A DNA stretch of 32,000 bases. Origin: Pseudodesulfovibrio mercurii. Lineage in GTDB: Bacteria; Desulfobacterota; Desulfovibrionia; Desulfovibrionales; Desulfovibrionaceae. The notes below the pieces were generated by a model. That model made no database searches. It saw only the letters and a program-made list of their open reading frames with translations, and was not told the origin of the DNA. Location: contig NC_016803.1 of the NCBI RefSeq assembly GCF_000189295.2, positions 1,950,001 to 1,982,000 on the forward strand, given 5' to 3'. Below, piece after piece: positions 7,207 through 31,481 of the stretch (positions are counted from its first letter, which is position 1; each line of letters begins with the position of its first letter). A program made the translations under genes and the position numbers.

Positions 7207-9228
7207 CTAGTCGCGGAACTTGGAAACCAGTTCGGCCAGTTCCCCGGCCAGTTCCGAGACCTCCTGGATACCCCGGTTGGACTCGCGGATGCCGGACAGG
7301 ACCTCCTGGGAGAGGTGGTTGATCTGGGTCACGCGCGTGTTGATCTCGTCCGAGGTGGAGGACTGCTGTTCCGCCGCGGTGGCGATGCCGTTGACCATGT
7401 CGGCGATGGAGTTGGAGTGCCTGACGATCTCGTCGAGCACGCCGCCCGCCTCCTGGGCCATGCCCGAGGTGTTCAGGACCCGCTTCTTGGCGGTGTCCAT
7501 CTCCTTGACCACGTCCGTGGTGGACTGCTGGATGAGCGAGATGGCCCCCTCCACCTCCTTGGTGGCGTCCATGGTCTTCTCGGCCAGCTTGCGGACCTCG
7601 TCCGCGACCACGGCGAAGCCTCGGCCGGCCTCGCCCGCGCGGGCCGCCTCGATGGCCGCGTTGAGCGCCAGCAGGTTGGTCTGGTCCGCGATGTCGTTGA
7701 TCACGGCCATGACCTTGCCGATGTTCTCGGCCCGACTGGACAGGGAGGCCAGAGCCTCGGCCAGGTGTTCGGTGATGTCGGCCACGGAGTTGATCTCCTC
7801 CACGGTCTTGCCCACCACCACGCCGCCCGAGGCGGCCACCTTGTTGGCCTGGTCCGAGGCCTCGGCGGTCTCGGCGGCGTTCTTGGCCACCTCCAGCACC
7901 GTGGCGTTCATCTCCTCCATGGCCGTGGCCACCTGGCTGGTCTGGTCGGCGGTGGTGTCCACCCCGCTGGCCAGCTGGTCCATCCGGGTGGACAGCACGT
8001 TGGAGGCCTCGTTGAGCCTGTTGGCCACCTGGGTGACCTCGTTGGCCACTTCCAGGAGGCTCTGGCGCTGGAGTTCGATGCTCTTCTTGTCCTCCTCCTC
8101 GCGGGTCAGGTCGATGAGCACGCAGATGACGCCCACGGTCTCACCCTCGGCGTCCTTGAGCGGCGAGGCCTCGAACAGGAGCGGGAAGGTGGTGCCGTCC
8201 CGGCGGGTGAACAGGAAACGCCCGTTGAGGGGTTCGCCCAGGGCGATGACCTCGCCCGCGTTGCAGGCGGAACCGTCCTCGGACTCGCAGGCGAAAACCT
8301 CGGCCACGGCACGGCCCTTGAGCTCGTCCTCGGTCAGGTCCAGGATGGCCTGGAGGGGCGGGTTGACGAATTGCAGAGTCTGTTTGGCGTCGGTCACGAA
8401 CAGCGGGACCACGATGCCGCCGAGTACGCTCTGGTTGTATTCGAGCTGGTCCTTGATCTGGTTGACCATGGCCCCCAGGTAGCGGGACAGGGAGCCGAGC
8501 TCGTCGGACCCGGACACGGTGAACTGGGCGTCCAGGTTGCCGTGGGCCACGTCCTTGGCCGTGGTGGCGATGGAGGTGATGCGGTTGACGATGGCCTTGC
8601 GCATGAAGATGATCAGCGCGGCCAGCAGGGCCAGGACCCCGAGCAGGGAGATGCCCGCGGACTTGAACTGGTTGTCCTTGAGCGCGCCGTACTGCGGGCT
8701 GATGTCCACGGCCACGACCATGGCCCCGAGAATCTCCCGGCTGCGTCCATGGCAGTGGTAGCAGAACGGGTTGTTCCCGATGGACTTGACCTCCACGAAG
8801 TGGCGCTTGCCGCCGACCTCCTCCATCTTGCCCTCGGCCACCTTCTCCTCGAGCCCCCGGGCCACAAGGTCGGGCAGTCCGGCCTCGGGCATGACCTCGA
8901 AGATCTTCTTGCGCTCGGCCTCGGTCTCCGTGGAATAGGTGATCTCGCCCTTGTAGTCGGTCAGGTAGACCTGGATGTCCGGATAGCGCTCGGCCATCTG
9001 GAGGAACTTGATCTCCGTGCCCTCGTTGTCGCCCTTGGCCATGGGGTCCTCGATGGCGATGTAGAGCATGTCCGCCACCCGCTCCGCGGCCACGGCCACC
9101 TCATGCAGGGTGTGGTCCTTGGTCGTGATGGAGGTGTAGGCGAACAGCCCGGCAAAGGCCAGGATGGTCAGCAGGGACGAGAGCAGGATGAGTTTGACGC
9201 CCAGCGAGCGCGTGATGAAATTGTCCAT
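7207..9228 (-). CDS. dcrA: Methyl-accepting chemotaxis protein with periplasmic c-type haem motif, HAMP and cytoplasmic PAS domain (DcrA-like)
   Basis: Two TM segments flank a roughly 170-aa periplasmic domain carrying CYHCH (nt 8749-8763). After TM2 comes a HAMP-like segment, then a PAS-like segment. The C-terminal MCP signalling domain includes EQTNLLALNAAIEAARAGEAGRGFAVVADEVRKLAE. The size (673 aa) and haem motif resemble D. vulgaris DcrA. Confidence 0.85.
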   Translation of the reverse strand: MDNFITRSLGVKLILLSSLLTILAFAGLFAYTSITTKDHTLHEVAVAAERVADMLYIAIEDPMAKGDNEGTEIKFLQMAERYPDIQVYLTDYKGEITYSTETEAERKKIFEVMPEAGLPDLVARGLEEKVAEGKMEEVGGKRHFVEVKSIGNNPFCYHCHGRSREILGAMVVAVDISPQYGALKDNQFKSAGISLLGVLALLAALIIFMRKAIVNRITSIATTAKDVAHGNLDAQFTVSGSDELGSLSRYLGAMVNQIKDQLEYNQSVLGGIVVPLFVTDAKQTLQFVNPPLQAILDLTEDELKGRAVAEVFACESEDGSACNAGEVIALGEPLNGRFLFTRRDGTTFPLLFEASPLKDAEGETVGVICVLIDLTREEEDKKSIELQRQSLLEVANEVTQVANRLNEASNVLSTRMDQLASGVDTTADQTSQVATAMEEMNATVLEVAKNAAETAEASDQANKVAASGGVVVGKTVEEINSVADITEHLAEALASLSSRAENIGKVMAVINDIADQTNLLALNAAIEAARAGEAGRGFAVVADEVRKLAEKTMDATKEVEGAISLIQQSTTDVVKEMDTAKKRVLNTSGMAQEAGGVLDEIVRHSNSIADMVNGIATAAEQQSSTSDEINTRVTQINHLSQEVLSGIRESNRGIQEVSELAGELAELVSKFRD

Positions 9229-9866: not shown

Positions 9867-12863
9867 TTACCAGGCCAAAGTCTCCTTGAAGGCGGCGGCC
9901 AGCCCGTCCACGGGCGCATCCAGCACCTTTTCGTCCGCCAGGGTGGCGATGAACGCGGGTTCCTCCGAGACGTCGCCGATCCAGGCGCAGGCCTGTCCGG
10001 CGAACAGGGCCTCGAACCGGTCGCGGTTCGACGGGGCCACGGTGACCAGCAGGCGGCTGGCCGATTCCGCGTAGAGCAGACCGGTCAGGTTGAGCTCGCC
10101 ACAGGCCGGGACCTGGTCCAGGTCCACCTCGGCGCCGAGCCGTCCGCCGATGCACATCTCGGCCAGGGCCACGCCCAGGCCGCCGTCCGAGCAGTCGTGG
10201 CAGGCGGTGATCAGCCCTTCCTGGGCGGCCGCGAACACGGTCTCGTAGCGCTTCTTCGCGGTCAGCAGGTCCACCTGCGGCACGCGGGCGTCGGAGAACT
10301 TGAGCTCGTCCGCGACCTCGCTGCCGCCCATCTCCGGCCGGGTCAGGCCGAGCAGGTAGATCAGGTCGCCGGGCTTCTTGAAGTCCGAGGTCAGGCACTT
10401 GTTCACGTCCGGGATGACGCCGATGATCGAGAAGAGCACGGTCGGGGGAATGGATATCTTGCGCCCGCCGCCCTTGTAGTCGTTCTTCATGGAGTCCTTG
10501 CCGGACACGCAGGGCACGCCGAAGCCGAGGCAGTAGTGGGCCAGGGCCTGGTTGGCCCGGACCAACTGGGCCAGCTTGTAGTGGCCGTCCGGGGTGGACT
10601 CGGACTGGACCGGGTCGCACCAGCAGAAGTTGTCCACGCCGGCCATGTAGGAGACGTCGCCGCCCACGGCCACGGCGTTGCGCACGGCCTCGTCGATGGC
10701 GTTGGCCATCATCCAGTAGGTGTCGTAGTCCGAGAACTGCGGGCAGATGCCGTGGGAGACCACCAGCCCCTTGTCCGAGCCGTACTCGGGCCGGATGACG
10801 CCCGCGTCGGACGGGCCGTCCGCCTTGACGCCGACCATGGGCTTGACCGCGGACTTGCCCTGGACCTCGTGGTCGTACTGCCGGACCACGTATTCCTTGG
10901 AGCAGATGTTCAGCCGGCCGAGCATGGCCTTGAGCAGTGCGTTCTGGTCGTCGGCAACGGGCACGGCGTCCTGGGCGATCTCGGGCCGTTTCCAGACGGC
11001 CTTGAGCTCCATCTGGGGCACGCCGTGGTGCAGGAAGTCCATGTCCAGGCAGGTGACCAGCTTGTCGCCGTAGCGCACCAGGTACTTGCCCGACTCGGTG
11101 AAGGTGCCGAGGGCGGTGGACTCCACGTCCATCTCCTCGGACAGGCGCATGAACTCGTCGAGCTTGTCCGGGGGCACGGCCATGGTCATGCGCTCCTGGG
11201 CCTCGGAGATGAGGACCTCCCAGGGACGCAGCCCGTCGTACTTGAGCGGGGCCTTTTTCAGGTCCATGTCGAAGCCGCCGGAGTCCTCGGCCATCTCGCC
11301 CACGGAGGAGGACAGGCCGCCCGCCCCGTTGTCGGTAATGGCGTGGTACAGCCCGAGGTCGCGGGCGCGCATGAGAAAGTCGTACATCTTGCGCTGGGTG
11401 ATGGGGTCGCCGATCTGGACCGCCGTGGCCGGGGAGCCCTCGTGCAGCTCCTCGGACGAGAAGGTCGCGCCGTGGATGCCGTCCGCGCCGATGCGGCCGC
11501 CGGACATGACGATGATGTCGCCGGGCAGGGCGCATTTCTCATAGGACGGATGGCCGGAGACCATGACCGGCATGGTCCCGATGGTCCCGCAGTAGACCAG
11601 GGGCTTGCCCAGGTAGCGCTCGTCGAAGACGATGGACCCGTTCACGGTCGGGATGCCGGACTTGTTGCCGCCGTGCTCCACGCCCTCGCGCACGCCCTCG
11701 AAGACGCGGCGCGGGTGCAGCAGCCTGGGCGGCAGCTCGCCCTCGTGGAACGGGGAGGCGAAGCAGAACACGTCGGTGTTGCACAAAAGGTTCGCGCCCA
11801 TGCCCGTGCCCATGGGGTCGCGGTTCACGCCGACGATGCCGGTCAGGGCCCCGCCGTAGGGGTCCAGGGCGGACGGCGAGTTGTGGGTCTCCATCTTGAC
11901 GCAGACGTTGATGGACTCGGAGAACTTGATCACGCCCGCGTTGTCCTTGAACACGGACAGGCAGTAGTCGCCGCCCTCGCGGGAGGCCGCGTTGCGCGCG
12001 CGGATCTGCTTGGTGGAGTTCTGGATGAAGGTCTTGTACAGGCTCGAATACTCGACGGTCTTGCCGGTCTCGGTGTTCTCGTATTCGATCTTGGCCGAGA
12101 AGATCTTGTGCTTGCAGTGCTCGGACCAGGTCTGGGCCAGGACCTCGATCTCGGCGTCCGTGGGATCGGCGGCGAGGCCCATGGTCTCGCGCTCCGCCCG
12201 GACCGCCGAGTCCGCGAAGTAGGCGCGGATGTCGTGCAGCTCCCTGAGGGACAGGGCCAGGGTGTTGGCACGGGAAAAGTCGGTCAGCTCGTCGTCGGTC
12301 ATGGTGGACAGGGGAATGATCCCGACCTCGTCCGAGGCCTGGCCCGTGACCCGTGCGGCCTTGGCCGCGAAGCCGGGGTCCTCGGCCCACTGGGCGGCGG
12401 ACTTGTACTCGAAGCGCTGGATCAGTTCGTTGGCCAGCAGGTCCTTGGCGATGCGGTGCGCGCCCGCCTCGTCCATGTCGGCCTGGATCAGGTACTGCCG
12501 CGAGGTGTAGACCTTGATCCCCTCGCGCTCGGCCCGGGTCAATCCCAGGACCACGCCCAGGGTCTCGCGGGCGGTCCGCCCCTCGTTGTCGGTCACGCCG
12601 GGCCGGAAGCCGACCTCGATGATCCAGTCGAAGTCGCGGGCCAGGGGCGCGAGCGACACCTCGTGCAGGACCGGGTCGTGCAGGGCGGCCCGCTCGATGG
12701 CCAGGTCCACCTGCTCCCCGGTCACGCCCTCCAGGGTGAAGACGTTGACGATGCGGACGTCGCGCACGTCCATGCCGAGTTCGCTCCTGATCTTGCGGGC
12801 GATCTTCTCGCCGAGCACGTCCCGGACGCCTTCCTTCAGTCCAACGATCACACGACAAAGCAT
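9867..12863 (-). CDS. purL: Phosphoribosylformylglycinamidine (FGAM) synthase, PurL synthetase with fused N-terminal PurS-like region and no glutaminase domain
   Basis: 998-aa ORF with PurL/AIR-synthase-related motifs: ETHNHPSA-like METHNSPSALDPYGGA, DNGAGGLSSSVGEMA, SGKDSM. GAGGAGAG lies upstream of the ATG. Confidence 0.9.
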   Translation of the reverse strand: MLCRVIVGLKEGVRDVLGEKIARKIRSELGMDVRDVRIVNVFTLEGVTGEQVDLAIERAALHDPVLHEVSLAPLARDFDWIIEVGFRPGVTDNEGRTARETLGVVLGLTRAEREGIKVYTSRQYLIQADMDEAGAHRIAKDLLANELIQRFEYKSAAQWAEDPGFAAKAARVTGQASDEVGIIPLSTMTDDELTDFSRANTLALSLRELHDIRAYFADSAVRAERETMGLAADPTDAEIEVLAQTWSEHCKHKIFSAKIEYENTETGKTVEYSSLYKTFIQNSTKQIRARNAASREGGDYCLSVFKDNAGVIKFSESINVCVKMETHNSPSALDPYGGALTGIVGVNRDPMGTGMGANLLCNTDVFCFASPFHEGELPPRLLHPRRVFEGVREGVEHGGNKSGIPTVNGSIVFDERYLGKPLVYCGTIGTMPVMVSGHPSYEKCALPGDIIVMSGGRIGADGIHGATFSSEELHEGSPATAVQIGDPITQRKMYDFLMRARDLGLYHAITDNGAGGLSSSVGEMAEDSGGFDMDLKKAPLKYDGLRPWEVLISEAQERMTMAVPPDKLDEFMRLSEEMDVESTALGTFTESGKYLVRYGDKLVTCLDMDFLHHGVPQMELKAVWKRPEIAQDAVPVADDQNALLKAMLGRLNICSKEYVVRQYDHEVQGKSAVKPMVGVKADGPSDAGVIRPEYGSDKGLVVSHGICPQFSDYDTYWMMANAIDEAVRNAVAVGGDVSYMAGVDNFCWCDPVQSESTPDGHYKLAQLVRANQALAHYCLGFGVPCVSGKDSMKNDYKGGGRKISIPPTVLFSIIGVIPDVNKCLTSDFKKPGDLIYLLGLTRPEMGGSEVADELKFSDARVPQVDLLTAKKRYETVFAAAQEGLITACHDCSDGGLGVALAEMCIGGRLGAEVDLDQVPACGELNLTGLLYAESASRLLVTVAPSNRDRFEALFAGQACAWIGDVSEEPAFIATLADEKVLDAPVDGLAAAFKETLAW

Positions 12864-27114: not shown

Positions 27115-28503
27115 CTACCACCCCTTACCGGGGTTCATGATCTCGTGGGGGTCGAAGACGCGGCGCACGGTCTCCATGAAATGGAGCTGGTCCGCGCCGA
27201 GCTGCTCGGGCACGAAGGAGGCCTTGGTCAGGCCGGTGCCGTGCTCGCCCGAGATGGTCCCGCCCAGTTCCACGGCGGCCCGGAAGAGCCGCTCCTTGAC
27301 CTGGTGGGCGGCGCGGACCTCCTCGGGGTGGGCCGCGTCGTGCATGATGTTGGTGTGGATGTTGCCGTCGCCCAGGTGGCCGTAGCAGAGCACGGGCAGC
27401 CCGGCGTCGGCCCCGGCCTTTTGGGCGATGCGCACCAGCTCGGGCACGCGGCCGCGCGGCACGGCCAGGTCCTCGGAAAGCTTGTCGGGCCGGAGCCGGT
27501 AGGAGCCGGGCGAGATGTCCCGGCGGGCGGCCCAGACCGCTTCCTCGGCCTCGCCCTCGCCCACCTCCAGGGAGACCGGCCCCACGGCCGCAAGCGCCGC
27601 CTCGAGCCGTCGGATCTCGGCGGCCACGCCCTCGGCCGTGCCGTCGAACTTGAAGAGCAGCGCGGCCTGGGCCTGCGGGGCCAGGGGGATGTCGCCGCCC
27701 AGGCGCACGGCCTTGATGGTGGTCACGTCCATGAACTCGCAGGCGCAGGGCAGGAGCCCGGCCCCGAAGACGGCCATGGCCCCGTTCATGGCCCCGTCCA
27801 GGTCGGCGAAGCCCACCAGCACGGAGCTGGAGGTCTCGGGCAGGGGGATGAGCTTGACCGTGGCCCGGGTGATCAGGCCGAGCTTGCCGTCCGCGCCGAC
27901 AAAAAGGCGCTTCAGGTCCAGGCCGACCACGTCCTTCTGGGCCCGGCCGCCCATGGTCAGGACCTTGCCGCCGGGGAGCACGGCCTCGATGCCCAGGACC
28001 CAGTCGCGGGTCACGCCGTACTTAACGGCCCGCAGCCCGCCCGCGCAGGTGGAGATGTTCCCGCCCATGGTGGAGATCTTCACGCTGGCCGGGTCCGGGG
28101 GATAGAAGAGCTTCTTCGCGGCGCATGCCTGCTGGAAGTCCGCCGTGATCACGCCGGGCTCCACCTCGGCGGCGAAGTCGCGTTCGCTGATGTCGAGGAT
28201 GCGGTTCATGCGTAGCAGGGACACGGTCACGCCGTGCAGGAGCGGCACGGTGTTGCCCACCTGCCCGGTGGCCCGTGCGCGCGGATAGAGCGGCATGCGC
28301 TCGGCGTCGGCCCAGCGCAGGAGTTCGGCCGCCTGGTCCCGGCTCTCGGGCCGGACCACGGCCCAGGGCATGGACCGCTCGCGGCTCGCGTCCGTGGAAA
28401 AGGCGTTCATTTCCTCGGTGTCGAGGACGCACCCGTCGCCGGGGAAGAGATCGGTCAGGAACGCCCGGTGGGCGTCTGTCAGGGAGGTGGCGTAATTCGG
28501 CAT
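27115..28503 (-). CDS. glcD: FAD-linked oxidase, GlcD-type (probable D-lactate dehydrogenase)
   Basis: FAD-binding PCMH domain shows PWAVVRPES...PRARATGQVGNTVP. The C-terminal oxidase domain shows GTISGEHGTGLTK and FDPHEIMNPGK. Pairing with a GlcF-like Fe-S subunit matches the Desulfovibrio Dld-II arrangement. Confidence 0.88.
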   Translation of the reverse strand: MPNYATSLTDAHRAFLTDLFPGDGCVLDTEEMNAFSTDASRERSMPWAVVRPESRDQAAELLRWADAERMPLYPRARATGQVGNTVPLLHGVTVSLLRMNRILDISERDFAAEVEPGVITADFQQACAAKKLFYPPDPASVKISTMGGNISTCAGGLRAVKYGVTRDWVLGIEAVLPGGKVLTMGGRAQKDVVGLDLKRLFVGADGKLGLITRATVKLIPLPETSSSVLVGFADLDGAMNGAMAVFGAGLLPCACEFMDVTTIKAVRLGGDIPLAPQAQAALLFKFDGTAEGVAAEIRRLEAALAAVGPVSLEVGEGEAEEAVWAARRDISPGSYRLRPDKLSEDLAVPRGRVPELVRIAQKAGADAGLPVLCYGHLGDGNIHTNIMHDAAHPEEVRAAHQVKERLFRAAVELGGTISGEHGTGLTKASFVPEQLGADQLHFMETVRRVFDPHEIMNPGKGW

Positions 28504-28509
28504 GCGCCG

Positions 28510-28538
28510 AGCCTACGAGTACGATTATCGAGTGTCAA
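28510..28538 (-). promoter_or_regulatory. Possible sigma70 promoter placed so that the glcD mRNA would be leaderless
   Basis: The minus strand has TTGACA (28538-28533), a 17-nt spacer and TAGGCT (28515-28510). Six nt then precede the ATG at 28503, and there is no Shine-Dalgarno sequence. Confidence 0.3.
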
Positions 28539-28563
28539 TGACATGAGAGGCGGGATGGGGGAT

Positions 28564-28666
28564 GGAGCCTGCGGCTCCGCGCTGAAGAGCGCGCCTGCGG
28601 CGCGGAGAGCCGGGATGGAGCTGCGCTCCTCCCTCCGAGAGCCAGCGAGGCGGTTGCACCGCCTCG
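28564..28666. repeat. Cluster of four short GC-rich hairpins, all with a TGC triloop
   Basis: GGAGCC-TGC-GGCTCC (28564-28578), CGCGCC-TGC-GGCGCG (28590-28604), GGAGC-TGC-GCTCC (28617-28629), CGAGGCGGT-TGC-ACCGCCTCG (28646-28666). Confidence 0.8.
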
Positions 28667-28980
28667 GCTTCCATGCCCTCCCGGCGGGGTCCATTTTTTT
28701 GCTGGCCCAAAAAAATAGACGAAAAAAAGGGCCTTGCGGGGGGAGCGGCCGCCCGGGGAGGGGGCGCAAGAATCCGATCCGCTCGGGGCGGCTCCATCTG
28801 AGCAAAAGTATAGTGCGACTCCCGGAGCGGAATGCCCCCTTTTGGGAAAGACCGAGCCTCGAAGGGACAAGAGCCGCCACCCCTTCGCGGTCGGCTTCTA
28901 CGCGCCCCCTCCAGGGCTGTGACGGTGCGGTGAAGAGGTGCGGGGGGGGACGCGGCGGGGCGTGCGTTTTGGTGGGGCCG

Positions 28981-29011
28981 AGAGCCGCTGTCGGGTGCCG
29001 GGGGCACCCGA
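28981..29011 (-). repeat. Inverted copy of the hairpin+CAGCGGCTCT module seen at 3334-3362
   Basis: Minus strand reads TCGGGTGCC-CCC-GGCACCCGA-CAGCGGCTCT. The arms and the 10-nt tail match the 3.3-kb locus. Confidence 0.8.
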
Positions 29012-29297
29012 GTCGCTCCAGTGGGTGCGAGTTGGGGGAGTGTGGGCTTGGGGATGGGGGTTGAAGGCGGGAGTTTGCGTTGGGAGAGCCATGAAAGGGA
29101 AGGAAATGTGGGGGCTCCTACACCTCCCGCGACGCGTTTCTCCTGAGTCCCCAATTTTTCCCAGGGCCGCCGCCAAGGCGGTCCGCCACCCCCCTGTCGC
29201 GAGTGCGGCCAAACCCGCTGTGCTCTTTTCAAGCCCGTCTACAGACGAGGCCCCCCAACCTCCACCGCGCGAGCGCGGCCCAATTTTTCTCACCCCG

Positions 29298-29593
29298 CCT
29301 CTTCGTGCCCGGCCATTCGTCCCGGCCCACTCCCCACACCCGAAGAGCGGTAGTCGGCGGCGGACCCTAGAGCCCGTGTTCGGCGGCGAAAGCGCGGGTT
29401 TGAGCGCGTCTGCGCAGCAGACATTCGCTCACAACCAGCGAAAGCCGCCTACGGGCTCTTGGGTCCGTCGGCGGGCGGCAGCACCGAAGCGCAGTTTTTG
29501 CTTCCTTTTTTCTGCGCCGGCAAAAAGGAAGTCGCCGTAAAGGCGAAATACGATGTGAGGATGACAGTCCTCAGCTCCGACGCGGATGCGCGG
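29298..29593. repeat. Tandem direct repeat, copy A (about 296 bp), non-coding
   Basis: It aligns by eye with 29686-29982, with about 20 differences including one 1-nt indel. It contains a 105-nt rod hairpin (29362-29466) and the hairpin CTTCCTTTTT...AAAAAGGAAG. Confidence 0.9.
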
Positions 29594-29685
29594 ATAAATC
29601 CAAGGAGTCTCTCCCTCCCAGGCCCGCCGCAGGGCGATCCACTACAACACCGCCGCGCAAGCGCGGACAACTTCTCGACTTCAGA

Positions 29686-29982
29686 CCTCTTCGTACCCGG
29701 CCATCCGCTCCGGCCCACTCCTCGCACCCGAAGAGCGGTAATGGGCGGCGGACCCTAGAGCCCGTGTTCGGCGGCGAAAGCGCGGGTTTGAGCGCGTCTG
29801 CGCGGCAGACATTCGCTCACAACCAGCGAAAGCCGCCTACGGGCTCTTGGGTCCGTCGACGCGCGGCAGCACCGCAGCGCAGTTTTTGCTTCCTTTTTTC
29901 TGCGCCAGCAAAAAAGGAAGTCGCCGTAAGGGCGAAATACGATGTAGGGATGACAGTCATCAGCCCCCACGCGGATGCGCGG
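29686..29982. repeat. Tandem direct repeat, copy B (about 297 bp), non-coding
   Basis: It starts 388 bp after copy A. The rod hairpin is at 29750-29854. The ~92-bp spacer (29594-29685) resembles the sequence preceding copy A more loosely. Confidence 0.9.
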
Positions 29983-30009
29983 CCATATTCAAGCGCCCCA
30001 CTTCTTCAT

Positions 30010-30043
30010 AAAAAAGGGCCGCTCCCCGGCAGGGGAACGGCCC
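30010..30043 (-). terminator. Rho-independent terminator downstream of the 117-aa gene
   Basis: Minus strand reads GGGCCGTTCCCC-TGCC-GGGGAGCGGCCC (one mismatch) followed by T6. Confidence 0.8.
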
Positions 30044-30065
30044 TTCACCTCTTCAAACGAAGGGA

Positions 30066-30419
30066 CTAGGCCTCCAGTTCCTTCATCAACCACTCCTTGA
30101 TGGGCGGGGTCAACTCGAGGATGCCCTTGATGCCCTTGATGTCTTCGAGCAGCTGCTTGGCCAGGTCCTCGGGAATCTTCTTGGAACACAGGATGGTCGA
30201 TCCGTAGTTGTCCATGCGCATGAGCACCACCTTGGGCTCACCCCAGGTGTCCATGGCGAAATATACCGAATATTCCCCGGACGTGGTCACCGGCGAACGC
30301 ATGGCGTCGCGATAGTTGTTGTTGCCCCATTCCAGGTACAGGGTGACGGCATCCTCGTGGATCATGTCCCAGTTCACTTCGTTCAGCCACTGCCTGCATG
30401 CGTTGGTGTCGTCGCTCAT
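30066..30419 (-). CDS. Hypothetical 117-aa cytoplasmic protein
   Basis: A clean ORF with GGAGGA 4 nt upstream of the ATG, its own promoter and its own terminator. Composition is coding-like but slightly less GC-rich than the neighbours. I do not recognise the family. Confidence 0.7.
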   Translation of the reverse strand: MSDDTNACRQWLNEVNWDMIHEDAVTLYLEWGNNNYRDAMRSPVTTSGEYSVYFAMDTWGEPKVVLMRMDNYGSTILCSKKIPEDLAKQLLEDIKGIKGILELTPPIKEWLMKELEA

Positions 30420-30449
30420 ATTTCCTCCAAAAGTGTGTTGTCCATTTTT

Positions 30450-30480
30450 TGATAATAAGTATCACTTGGAGTTCTGTCCA
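30450..30480 (-). promoter_or_regulatory. Sigma70-like promoter (TGGACA-N17-TATTAT) with a Fur-box-like 6-1-6 inverted repeat over the -10
   Basis: The minus strand has TGGACA (30480-30475), a 17-nt spacer and TATTAT (30457-30452). TGATACT-T-ATTATCA (30464-30450) matches GATAAT-N-ATTATC at 11 of 12 arm positions. Confidence 0.5.
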
Positions 30481-30485
30481 GCCTC

Positions 30486-30908
30486 TTACGGATCAATGCC
30501 GTCCTCCCGGTTCCGGCGCATCACCCAGACCAGCACCGCGAAGCCGAAAAGCAGCCCCAGCGCGGCCAGTTCGCGCACCCACAGTCCCCAGACCAGCACC
30601 CCGGCCAGCAGCAGCGCGCCCAGCAGCCGCGACCACTTGACCCGGTTCCACGGCGCGGCCGACCAGTTCTTCTCCCACTCCACGCCCCGGCGGGCCAGCC
30701 CGAACCACCAGTTCTCCGGCGGCGCGGGCAGGTCCAGCTCGAAAAATCCCGCGCCCAGCAGGATCAGCGAGGCGGCCAGCAACAGATAGCCGTGCGCGAA
30801 CAGGGCCAGGCCGAACAGGACCAGGGCCGCCGCATGCAGGCTCCAGTTCCACGGCTGGCGGTGTCTCGACAACGCGAGCGCAAACAACGACGACGGCGTG
30901 ACGGCCAT
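30486..30908 (-). CDS. Hypothetical small membrane protein (about four TM segments)
   Basis: ATG at 30908 has GGAGGAG upstream. Hydrophobic segments alternate with Trp/Arg-rich loops. I do not recognise the family. Confidence 0.6.
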   Translation of the reverse strand: MAVTPSSLFALALSRHRQPWNWSLHAAALVLFGLALFAHGYLLLAASLILLGAGFFELDLPAPPENWWFGLARRGVEWEKNWSAAPWNRVKWSRLLGALLLAGVLVWGLWVRELAALGLLFGFAVLVWVMRRNREDGIDP

Positions 30909-30947
30909 GACTCCTCCCGCCCGACCATACAAACGACCTCGCCGTCA

Positions 30948-30976
30948 TTGCAACCCATTACGGGTTTTTGTAAAAC
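30948..30976 (+). promoter_or_regulatory. Possible sigma70 promoter of the pncC-like gene (TTGCAA-N17-TAAAAC)
   Basis: The hexamers lie at 30948-30953 and 30971-30976. The SD GGAGGA is at 30985-30990 and the ATG at 30996. Confidence 0.35.
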
Positions 30977-30995
30977 CGGAACACGGAGGACAAAC

Positions 30996-31481
30996 ATGGA
31001 CACCTATCTCATCGCGCGGGCCGTGGCCGAACTCGGCGAATGCCTGCGCGCGCAAAATCACTTCCTGGCCACCGCCGAGTCCTGCACCGGCGGGCTGCTC
31101 GCCAGCACCCTGACCGATACCCCCGGCAGCTCCGAATGGTTCGCCGGGTCCGTGGTCGCCTACTCGAACACGGTCAAGAACAAACTCCTGGACGTGCCCG
31201 CCGCCACCCTCGAAGAACACGGCGCGGTCTCCGAACCCGTCGTCCTGGCCATGGCCCGGGGCGCGCTCAAGACCATCGGCGCGGACGTGTCCGTGGCCAT
31301 CTCCGGCATCGCCGGACCCTCCGGCGGCACCCCGGACAAACCCGTGGGCACCGTCTGGATCGCCTGGGCCTGGCCCGACGGCATACGCGCCCGAAAATAC
31401 CACTTCCAGGGCAACCGCGACCAGATCAAGGGACAATCCGTCATGACCGCCATCAACGGGCTGCTCGGCGTGACGAAGTAG
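30996..31481 (+). CDS. pncC: Nicotinamide-nucleotide amidohydrolase, CinA C-terminal domain type (PncC-like)
   Basis: LATAESCTGGLLA, GSVVAYSNxxKxxLLxV and VAISGIAGPSGGTPDKPVGTVWIA are characteristic CinA-C blocks. The product is 161 aa. Confidence 0.85.
   Translation: MDTYLIARAVAELGECLRAQNHFLATAESCTGGLLASTLTDTPGSSEWFAGSVVAYSNTVKNKLLDVPAATLEEHGAVSEPVVLAMARGALKTIGADVSVAISGIAGPSGGTPDKPVGTVWIAWAWPDGIRARKYHFQGNRDQIKGQSVMTAINGLLGVTK

Follow-up and report, generated by a model that had tools for sequence, protein, structure and literature searches.

The stretch of DNA analyzed here (the window) comprises 32,000 nucleotides of the forward strand of contig NC_016803.1 from the high-G+C Pseudodesulfovibrio mercurii, positions 1,950,001 to 1,982,000. 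A gene-free gap of 1.56 kb within it, at 28504-30065, holds two tandem copies of a sequence with a 388-bp period, each carrying a long, rod-like hairpin. We found that these copies (units A and B) belong to a family of about 50 related modules that is many-copy, folded and noncoding, apparently undescribed, and restricted so far to Pseudodesulfovibrio. The modules have a shared, modular anatomy, vary in copy number, and show base-pair covariation in the rod, in two crossing helices (S1 and S2) and in a small hairpin. These compensated changes, read from aligned sequences, indicate that the predicted fold is under selection. We tentatively favor, at somewhat less than an even chance, the explanation that the modules are transcribed, structured RNAs with an invariant core that would be recognized by a factor and a rod that would serve as a double-stranded handle.

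Pairwise alignment of 29298-29593 with 29686-29982 gave 20 differences in 297 columns (93.3% identity), in agreement with the original prediction, made from the letters of the window, which had put the identity at roughly 93% with about 20 differences. A repeat search extended the full repeat to 29262-29604 and 29650-29993, with a period of 388 nt that becomes 389 nt beyond a 1-nt indel. The 388-bp repeat was not listed by Tandem Repeats Finder, there being fewer than two copies at this long period. The hairpins at 29362-29466 and 29750-29854 each fold with 41 pairs and -71.6 kcal/mol, with z-scores of -8.6 and -7.3, and none of 200 shuffled sequences folded equally well. Both predicted hairpins are thus present, but the 105-nt extent first assigned to them was too short: the stem runs 7 bp past the arms described, to 29355-29473 (-85.2 kcal/mol) and 29743-29861 (-81.7 kcal/mol), giving a true span of ≈119 nt. 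As predicted, the sole difference within the 105-nt hairpin lies in the apical loop (A/G at 29416); the other 19 are found in the remaining 192 columns, making the hairpin poorer in differences than its surroundings (Fisher p = 0.0027). The A/T hairpin farther downstream likewise keeps its pairing despite the 1-nt indel, with a stem of 10 bp in the first copy and 11 bp in the second. The reverse strand of the 105-nt hairpin folds nearly equally well (-68.4), so the strand cannot be assigned from folding energy alone.

The original prediction had called for a search for further copies. A search with an exact two-arm pattern located four copies, dispersed in 'Desulfovibrio' caledoniensis lm2024, that share ≈80% identity with the unit of the window, and a 23-nt pattern from the best-conserved stretch recovered 11 metagenome loci, many of them with tandem pairs spaced 293-375 nt apart. 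At least nine units at five loci were present on one 493-kb contig, and nhmmer identified ≈23 copies among the loci searched. The ≈50 related modules come from 'D.' caledoniensis, P. thermohalotolerans, another Pseudodesulfovibrio species and several metagenome-assembled genomes (MAGs). Arrays occur about once per 100 kb in MAG contigs, and the module period across loci is 293-432 nt. Plasmid, phage and viral-contig collections contained no match to the element, and no description of it was found in searches of the literature on small RNAs (sRNAs) or repeats of Desulfovibrio and Pseudodesulfovibrio. Rfam 15 gave no match anywhere in the window at gathering thresholds, and a search of 28450-30100 at E up to 10 returned only hairpin look-alikes far below threshold, such as plant miRNA precursors.

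Two kinds of module, the units and a second type that we call U, make up polar arrays in which one to three U modules are followed by one to three units; the U-first order was found at every locus, and solitary units exist too. The U modules are ≈370 nt long and stand ahead of the units at L010, L016, L023, L027, L031 and MAG loci (L and a number denote the loci compared). In MAG contigs, two to three U modules followed by one to three units form a dispersed composite of 1.05-1.2 kb that is 88-95% identical between unrelated loci of one MAG. Arrays are always intergenic, usually wedged beside the terminators of neighboring genes. The window array consists of one U (28575-28964), a degenerate stretch and two units, with the following features:

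28575-28964, DNA match on the plus strand, apparent fold strand minus: U module (nhmmer U profile, E = 7e-83).
28689-28733, minus: U core, consisting of a GC clamp S1 (GGCCC/GGGCC), U-run, linker CGUCUA, U-run, AGC and A-run; the inverted counterpart of unit block 2.
28745-28918, minus: long imperfect U hairpin, variable at its apex, with GGCAAGAATCCGATCCGCTCGGGGCGGCTCC and GAGCCGCCACCCCTTCGCGGTCGGCTTCTACGC as its arms (RNAalifold, 21 U copies).
28980-29019, strand unassigned: small hairpin in the U-to-unit spacer, GAGAGCCGCTGT-stem-loop-GTCGCTCC, conserved in position.
29262-29649, plus: unit A, the first full 388-bp period (nhmmer unit profile 29290-29615, E = 4.5e-78).
29355-29473, plus: rod hairpin of unit A, comprising 29362-29466 and a 7-bp extension CGGCGGC/GTCGGCG (-85.2 kcal/mol).
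29489-29531, plus: block 2 core of unit A, near-invariant in ≈30 copies.
29489-29511, plus: S1a GCGCAG (29489-29494), L1 TTTTTG (29495-29500) and S2a CTTCCTTTTTT (29501-29511) of unit A.
29512-29531, plus: S1b CTGCGC (29512-29517), L3 CGGC (29518-29521) and S2b AAAAAGGAAG (29522-29531) of unit A.
29533-29545, plus: small hairpin of unit A, CGCC-GTAAA-GGCG, with a GNRA-like loop and compensatory pairs.
29581-29593, plus: 3' GC hairpin of unit A, CGCGGATGCGCGG, conserved in all clades and followed by a C-rich, G-poor spacer.
29650-30005, plus: unit B, the second copy (repeat search; nhmmer 29672-30013, E = 1.4e-83), abutting the terminator of the convergent gene.
29743-29861, plus: rod hairpin of unit B, the predicted 29750-29854 with its extension (-81.7 kcal/mol on the plus strand versus -73.4 on the minus strand).
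29877-29934, plus: block 2 core and small hairpin of unit B, with S1a at 29877-29882, L1 at 29883-29888 and S2a at 29889-29899.
29900-29934, plus: continuation in unit B, with S1b at 29900-29905, L3 at 29906-29909, S2b at 29910-29920 and the hairpin at 29922-29934.
29970-29982, plus: 3' GC hairpin of unit B.
30010-30045, minus: intrinsic terminator of the neighboring DVU0772-family gene, GGGCCGTTCCCCTGCCGGGGAGCGGCCC followed by TTTTTT, which the array abuts; arrays elsewhere likewise end against a neighboring gene's terminator.

The element is noncoding, because the three long open reading frames (ORFs) tested across the gap (28234-29064 and 28938-29540 on the plus strand, 28525-29232 on the minus strand) have no Pfam hit and the indels between copies are not multiples of three. 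Small ORFs, for example one with an ATG after AGGA and an ATGCCC in U, were rejected since their frames differ between copies, and ARAGORN found no tRNA or tmRNA.

Aligned over all copies, the plus strand of the unit falls into five parts: the rod hairpin, a 20-30 nt spacer, block 2, a variable stretch of ≈25 nt, and the GC hairpin with its tail. Fixed features of the rod are a U-U mismatch and the purine-rich internal loops GAA(A) and GAAA. Block 2 (AGCGCAGTTTTTGCTTCCTTTTTTCTGCGCCAGCAAAAAAGGAAGTCGCCGTAAAGGCGAAA) is 62 nt long and near-invariant in ≈30 copies from several species, which diverge by 10-25% elsewhere. The GC hairpin leads into a C-rich, G-poor tail with a GC skew of about -0.3 (-0.29 at 29575-29724). 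Block 2 is retained in five copies that lack the rod or the 5' half of it, namely L016 and the second copy in several tandem pairs. The rod is thus a real module, yet neither the most constrained nor an indispensable one. The view that a structured core is better kept than its flanks holds for the hairpin pair in the window, but the most conserved part of the unit is not the hairpin. It is block 2, the region of the A/T hairpin, in which a second helix crosses the first. A 1160-bp contig from the Logan assembly of SRR3926153 (L001), seemingly from the same strain, corresponds to window positions 29917-31076, and its 149 nt that overlap the gap are 100% identical; it stops inside block 2 of unit B, which would fit an assembly that collapsed at the exact sequence repeated most often in the family. 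The variable stretch after block 2 (29553-29575 in the window, and its equivalents) contains a recurring A(A/G)GGAU(G) motif, as in GUAAGGAUGAC, GUGAGGAUGAC and CAAAAGGAUGAC, which is similar to a GGA site of the CsrA type or to a Shine-Dalgarno sequence. The motif may point to a role as a CsrA sponge; it is lost in some copies, and its placement in loops is inconsistent.

Covariation was assessed by counting pairs in 20 units from at least five lineages, including the divergent pair of Pseudodesulfovibrio sp. GCA_022832675 (L031), over 61 base pairs. A standard pair was formed in 98.4% of the cells, as compared with 41-46% in controls in which the pairing was slid. Both sides had changed in 22 of the 61 pairs, a number reached in none of 500 shuffles. 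These double-changed pairs were found in all four helices: 14 of 39 in the rod, four of six in S1, two of 11 in S2 and two of five in the small hairpin, in which one copy also has a U-G pair. In the rod, CCCGT/ACGGG is replaced by CCTGT/ACAGG, and the apical stem GUCUGC/GCAGAC by GUCCAC/GUGGAC; the outer extension occurs in four versions, with covarying forms CGGAAGC/GCTTCCG, CGAAAGC/GCTTTCG and GGAATC/GATTCC. In the L031 units, the sequences of both crossing helices are completely replaced and the pairing is kept. S1, elsewhere GCGCAG/CUGCGC, is AAGGCG/CGCCUU there (with AAGGUG in the second unit), and S2 is CCUACUUUUGU/ACAAAAGUAGG in place of CUUCCUUUUUU/AAAAAAGGAAG; the small hairpin likewise differs, with GCGCU-GUAAG-AGCGC in place of CGCC-GUAAA-GGCG. 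The original prediction had named uncompensated arm mutations in homologs as evidence against a structured element; the arms instead mutate with compensation across species, which supports its proposal of a structured element, either an RNA or a protein-binding DNA, over neutral spacer.

The U modules are built on the same plan. The minus strand of U and the plus strand of the unit share the order long hairpin, GC clamp, U-run, linker, U-run, clamp, (C)AGC, A-run and small hairpin, and the U profile matches the units on the minus strand (nhmmer, E = 1e-5). The U core forms inverted repeat I1 with 29883-29915 (33 nt, 82%) and was also recovered by the search for pseudoknot topology described below. 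In U, S1 is GGCCC/GGGCC or AGCCGC/GCGGCU and S2 is GUCUAUUUUUUU/AAAAAAAUGGAC or GGUUCUUUUUUGG/CCAAAAAAGAACC, which brings the number of S1/S2 sequence versions across units and U modules to five. Three run variants of the U core (V1, V2 and V3) were found, in which the three A/T runs change in concert, and the consensus structure of the whole U module from 21 copies has double changes at 10 pairs (RNAalifold). Compensatory changes were also read directly from the sequences of the spacer hairpin: CGGACG..CGTCCG in L010 and L023, and TGGATGCC..GGCATCCA in L031. The U core and block 2 are 82% complementary over 33 nt, but a long-range pairing of the two was rejected, since the changes among V1-V3 of U have no covarying counterpart in block 2.

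Several other peculiarities were seen in and around the arrays. The GC hairpin motif of the unit 3' end (CGCGG-NNN-GCGCGG, then CCAAT...) is repeated two to three times after the units in L023 (8320-8480), and window positions 29125-29292 contain degenerate remnants of it, including a direct repeat, CCCAATTTTTCYCA, at 29150 and 29279. At 28900-29124 the plus strand of the window is strongly G-rich, containing runs such as GGGGGAGTGTGGGCTTGGGGATGGGGG and showing a GC skew of 0.35-0.44; at 29125 the skew switches to C-rich. A similar G-richness is found in the corresponding spacers that separate U modules in MAG loci. L023 has an A+T-rich insert of ≈290 bp between U and the first unit (≈7700-7990), with a perfect palindrome, TTGTATGTACATACAA.

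Within the core, the G+C-rich S1 (6 bp) encloses the 5' strand of the U/A-rich S2 (11 bp), and both helices covary, so the core would form either an H-type pseudoknot or two alternative states. This crossing topology, with covariation in each helix, is that of an H-type pseudoknot. The U-rich L1 (5-9 nt) is of adequate length, and L3 (2-4 nt) is marginal for an S1 of 5-6 bp. A brute-force search for the same topology on both strands of ≈0.45 Mb returned the members of the family along with just four or so weak outsiders.

L1 is always a U-run, and its length tracks that of the A-run of S2, with pairs of values (L1, A-run) of 5/6, 5/4, 7/7, 8/8, 6/6 and 7/6. U variant V2 has a matched C/G/G change in all three runs (TTTCTTTT / AAAAGAAA / AAAGAAAA). 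The register of the runs is compatible with a parallel triplex of the pyrimidine motif, as in telomerase RNA or SAM-II, an arrangement that we treat as a hypothesis. The AAAGAAA core is symmetric, however, and the T-run can pair with either A-run, so that alternative Watson-Crick duplexes explain the three-run data equally well; in the L031 unit the triplex register is broken at one position. Because of this symmetry, the 2-4 nt L3 and the L031 break, the triplex evidence is not decisive. It is doubtful that the units and U modules constitute a new multi-copy class of structured RNA, repeated in polar arrays at tens of loci per genome, in which the core pseudoknot would be stabilized by a U-A-U (and C+-G-C) major-groove triplex.

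Several indicators agree on which strand would be the folded one. In the units, G-U pairs occur at 12 pair positions (33 cells) on the plus strand, as compared to three A-C positions; in the U modules, the minus strand has 16 G-U positions versus 10 A-C positions. The better-folding strand was plus in 15 of 17 units and minus in all 17 U modules, and GNRA-like loops of the small hairpin (GUAAA, GUAAG, GGAAA and GUAA) are found only on the favored strand. These indicators are in agreement with one another and with the strand that carries the U-rich loop, and they hint at RNA.

According to the explanation that we favor, each unit would be expressed as RNA from the plus strand and would fold into the ≈119-nt rod, the crossing-helix core, the hairpin with the GNRA-like loop, and the terminal GC hairpin with its C-rich tail. 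The core, with its U-rich L1, could be an H-type pseudoknot or a two-state switch, and the U modules would present the same order of parts from the opposite strand. The invariant core would then be the recognition surface for a conserved trans-acting factor, and the rod would offer a double-stranded handle, on which an RNase III-type enzyme, for example, could process transcripts of several units. In this scheme the modules would function as stable structured RNAs and not as coding or promoter DNA.

A number of observations weigh against this explanation. The five copies that keep block 2 without a full rod show that the rod is not essential to every copy, and an L3 of only 2-4 nt is short for crossing an S1 of 5-6 bp, making a switch as likely as a static pseudoknot. 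The wobble tally is biased, since the structures that were tallied had been predicted on the favored strand; some single changes favor the opposite strand (GAACCC in L023, AAAAAAGAAAG in L022 and ACGCAG in L021); and single-stranded DNA would give the same G-U bias. Scans of the arrays of the window, L027 and L023 for sigma-70 sites found no consensus promoter save one match, the only one in any array, which lies in the A+T-rich insert of L023. No correctly spaced sigma-54 (TGGCAC-N5-TTGC), extracytoplasmic function (ECF) or sigma-28 site was seen by eye in block 2 or upstream of the hairpin. As no consensus promoter was found in the arrays, we infer their transcription rather than show it. 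Finally, an array about every 100 kb in MAG contigs, sited by terminators, is typical of selfish intergenic repeats.

The surroundings of the array bear on its origin. In the window, the gap is bordered on one side by a glcD-like FAD-linked oxidase gene (27115-28503, minus strand; Pfam hits) and on the other by the DVU0772-family gene (30066-30419, minus strand), whose protein is 94% identical to its P. methanolicus counterpart. Orthologous loci were anchored on the glcD-like protein. An array adjoins glcD or DUF3089-glcD in five lineages. There are three U modules and three units in P. thermohalotolerans, one U and two units in MAG L023 and likewise in L031, and a partial unit in strain Huiquan2017, where the contig begins within the unit. 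P. hydrargyri, P. indicus and P. sediminis have the glcD operon without the array. The original prediction had asked for a check on copy-number variation and had considered that the duplication might be specific to one strain; it is not, as the orthologous locus has one to three units and the family is dispersed. The two units seen in the window represent one state of an array whose copy number rises and falls through unequal recombination.

Window positions 28504-30065 were compared with L023, L027, L028 and L002-L007. The order in relatives is upstream gene, array, DUF3089, glcD. In the window, DUF3089 has been lost, the array has an inverted orientation with respect to glcD, and its far side is joined to a cinA/DVU0772 neighborhood, which in relatives continues into major facilitator superfamily (MFS) or DUF3124 genes. 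As the gene order of the window departs from that of relatives on both flanks, the array sits at a rearrangement junction. The element is absent at the DVU0772-side locus of P. methanolicus, P. profundus and MAG loci, because the window has its synteny break there. One of the P. profundus loci (L006, 10421-11652) has an insertion sequence with rve integrase and helix-turn-helix genes directly downstream of the DVU0772-family gene, and another P. profundus genome (L005) lacks this insertion sequence; the insertion in one P. profundus genome suggests that the intergenic spot is a repeated target of insertions or rearrangements.

This history lends weight to the main rival, which we consider rather unlikely: a selfish or mobile DNA repeat comparable to REPINs, miniature inverted-repeat transposable elements (MITEs), BOX or foldback elements. 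A transposase or recombinase whose gene lies elsewhere would then recognize the hairpins and the invariant block in the form of single-stranded or cruciform DNA, and structure would be kept for the sake of propagation and not of the host. Such an origin would agree with the many copies per genome, always intergenic and usually beside terminators, with the composites that are 88-95% identical at unrelated loci of one MAG, with the presence of the array at the glcD locus in some species and its absence from others, and with its position at a synteny break. The inverted, partly homologous cores of U and unit would resemble subterminal inverted repeats. However, alignment of seven full arrays with their flanks gave a fuzzy left boundary and no terminal inverted repeats or target-site duplication, although no clean pair of filled and empty sites was compared; no transposase lies beside any array, and the plasmid, phage and viral-contig collections lack the element. 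The orthologous position is kept in several species, and block 2 is near-invariant while flanks diverge, neither of which is expected of dead copies of a selfish element. The GNRA-like loops and the G-U bias also suggest RNA.

A role at the level of DNA, as an insulator between adjacent transcription units, a terminator or an array of nucleoid-protein sites, is quite improbable. It would be based on outward-facing weak terminators on U (plus) and the unit (minus), on A-tract bends, or on binding of nucleoid proteins. The small hairpin and T-run on these strands do resemble a weak intrinsic terminator, and terminator-like sites are found on exactly these strands in every array, which usually lies 3' of a codirectional gene and often faces a convergent one; the three A/T runs of U, moreover, change together. 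But the stems of these "terminators" have just 4-5 bp, the orientation of flanking genes is inconsistent (the downstream gene is codirectional in L023, L027 and L031), and a 119-nt rod with 14 compensatory pairs, like the covariation of S1, is left unexplained. The A/T hairpin itself is not an intrinsic terminator, in which a U-tract comes immediately after a G+C-rich stem, being followed by TCGCC on the plus strand and by CAAAAAC on the minus strand; a terminator scan flagged only the adjacent 5-bp CGCC hairpin with its T-run, on the minus strand. Some units end in a hairpin with a U/C-rich tail at the 3' end.

A cis-regulatory role of the array, as a long leader or an upstream control region for the glcD-like FAD-oxidase operon, is very improbable and is largely refuted by the dispersed distribution. 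The proximity to glcD in five lineages favors it, whereas arrays of this kind at many unrelated loci, the inverted orientation in the window and the three species that have the operon without the array speak against it. So does a promoter-like site directly at the glcD start codon: TTGACA-17 nt-TAGGCT (28510-28538, minus strand), with a -10 box that ends 6 nt before the ATG, so that the glcD transcript would be leaderless or nearly so. Similar sites, TTGACA-17-TAAGTT or TACTTT, then 6 nt and ATG, are found in P. hydrargyri (L029, ≈9960-10000) and L031 (≈9963-10003). A neutral, recent duplication of spacer with a chance palindrome, for which only the tandem arrangement speaks, is already refuted by the hairpin z-scores of about -8, the covarying cross-species family and the near-invariant core.

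If the modules are RNAs, they would be an undescribed, unusually large and abundant family of structured RNAs in sulfate-reducing bacteria, and a core conserved more strictly than the neighboring protein genes would point to an unrecognized partner and cellular role. If they are selfish DNA, they would be a new type of modular repeat, with structured modules of 300-430 bp in two orientations, that marks points of rearrangement, as in the window, and breaks short-read assemblies, as where L001 ends inside block 2. Either way, the family provides a defined and testable target, and complete genomes with arrays exist for P. thermohalotolerans and 'D.' caledoniensis.

Among known systems, the closest are BOX and REP/BIME, which have the same lifestyle and a different size and anatomy, the sibling sRNAs, and the pseudoknots with U-rich loops; the element qualified as a member of none of them. 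Readings as group II intron domain V, attC, retron, ToxI or 6S-like RNA were ruled out on anatomy. The attC sites of integrons occur in cassette arrays and have a palindrome whose base carries the core sites R'' (RYYYAAC) and R' (GTTRRRY); the base here is GGACCC...GGGTCC, and GTT is found only in the window copies, with GTCTCC or GTCTGA elsewhere. ToxI consists of tandem repeats of 34-45 nt directly upstream of an endoribonuclease toxin gene; an array of this type III toxin-antitoxin kind was rejected, as the period is 293-432 nt and no neighboring gene is constant across loci.

BOX elements of Streptococcus pneumoniae (boxA-boxB(n)-boxC) are likewise dispersed, intergenic and noncoding, with a variable number of modules, partly complementary end modules and stable predicted folds. 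Their modules are 45-60 bp long, however, as compared with 300-430 bp here, there is no sequence similarity, and they belong to a different phylum; the modules described here have a core with two covarying, crossing helices and no known link to a transposase. Repetitive extragenic palindromic (REP) sequences are palindromes of 20-40 nt with a GTAG or CGTC head, present in hundreds of copies and mobilized by RAYT (REP-associated tyrosine transposase), and a REPIN is formed by two inverted REPs. REPs, bacterial interspersed mosaic elements (BIMEs) and REPINs of gamma-proteobacteria share with the present family the imperfect palindromes, the arrays in opposed orientation at the 3' ends of genes and the variable copy number, and a REPIN doublet is similar in that it forms a hairpin of ≈100 nt. 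The rod arms begin with GGACCCTAGAGCC and have no GTAG or CGTC head. Unlike REPs, the rod is a single 119-nt hairpin in a 300-nt module, dispensable in some copies, and the most constrained part is a non-palindromic block of 62 nt.

Sibling sRNAs (Qrr1-5, PrrF1/2, OmrA/B and LhrC1-5) are also tandem or multi-copy noncoding units with one perfectly conserved stretch amid diverging flanks. They are 80-150 nt long and have recognizable promoters and intrinsic terminators, whereas the units here are ≈300 nt long, have no promoter consensus and apparently reach a far higher copy number per genome. The pseudoknots with U-rich loops (telomerase RNA and the S-adenosylmethionine riboswitches SAM-II and SAM-V, together with the ENE/MALAT1 triplexes) share the order S1 5', U-rich L1, S2 5', S1 3', L3 and A-rich S2 3', as well as the tracking of run lengths (six variants) and the matched C/G/G variant. 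They differ in that the element has no sequence or Rfam similarity to them, an L3 of 2-4 nt, and no consistent downstream gene such as a riboswitch would have. OLE, GOLLD, ROOL and HEARO, finally, were long, multi-helix noncoding elements supported by covariation and without known function at discovery, as is the family described here; in contrast to these single-copy elements, it has no Rfam match and consists of modules that are repeated in two orientations at many loci per genome.

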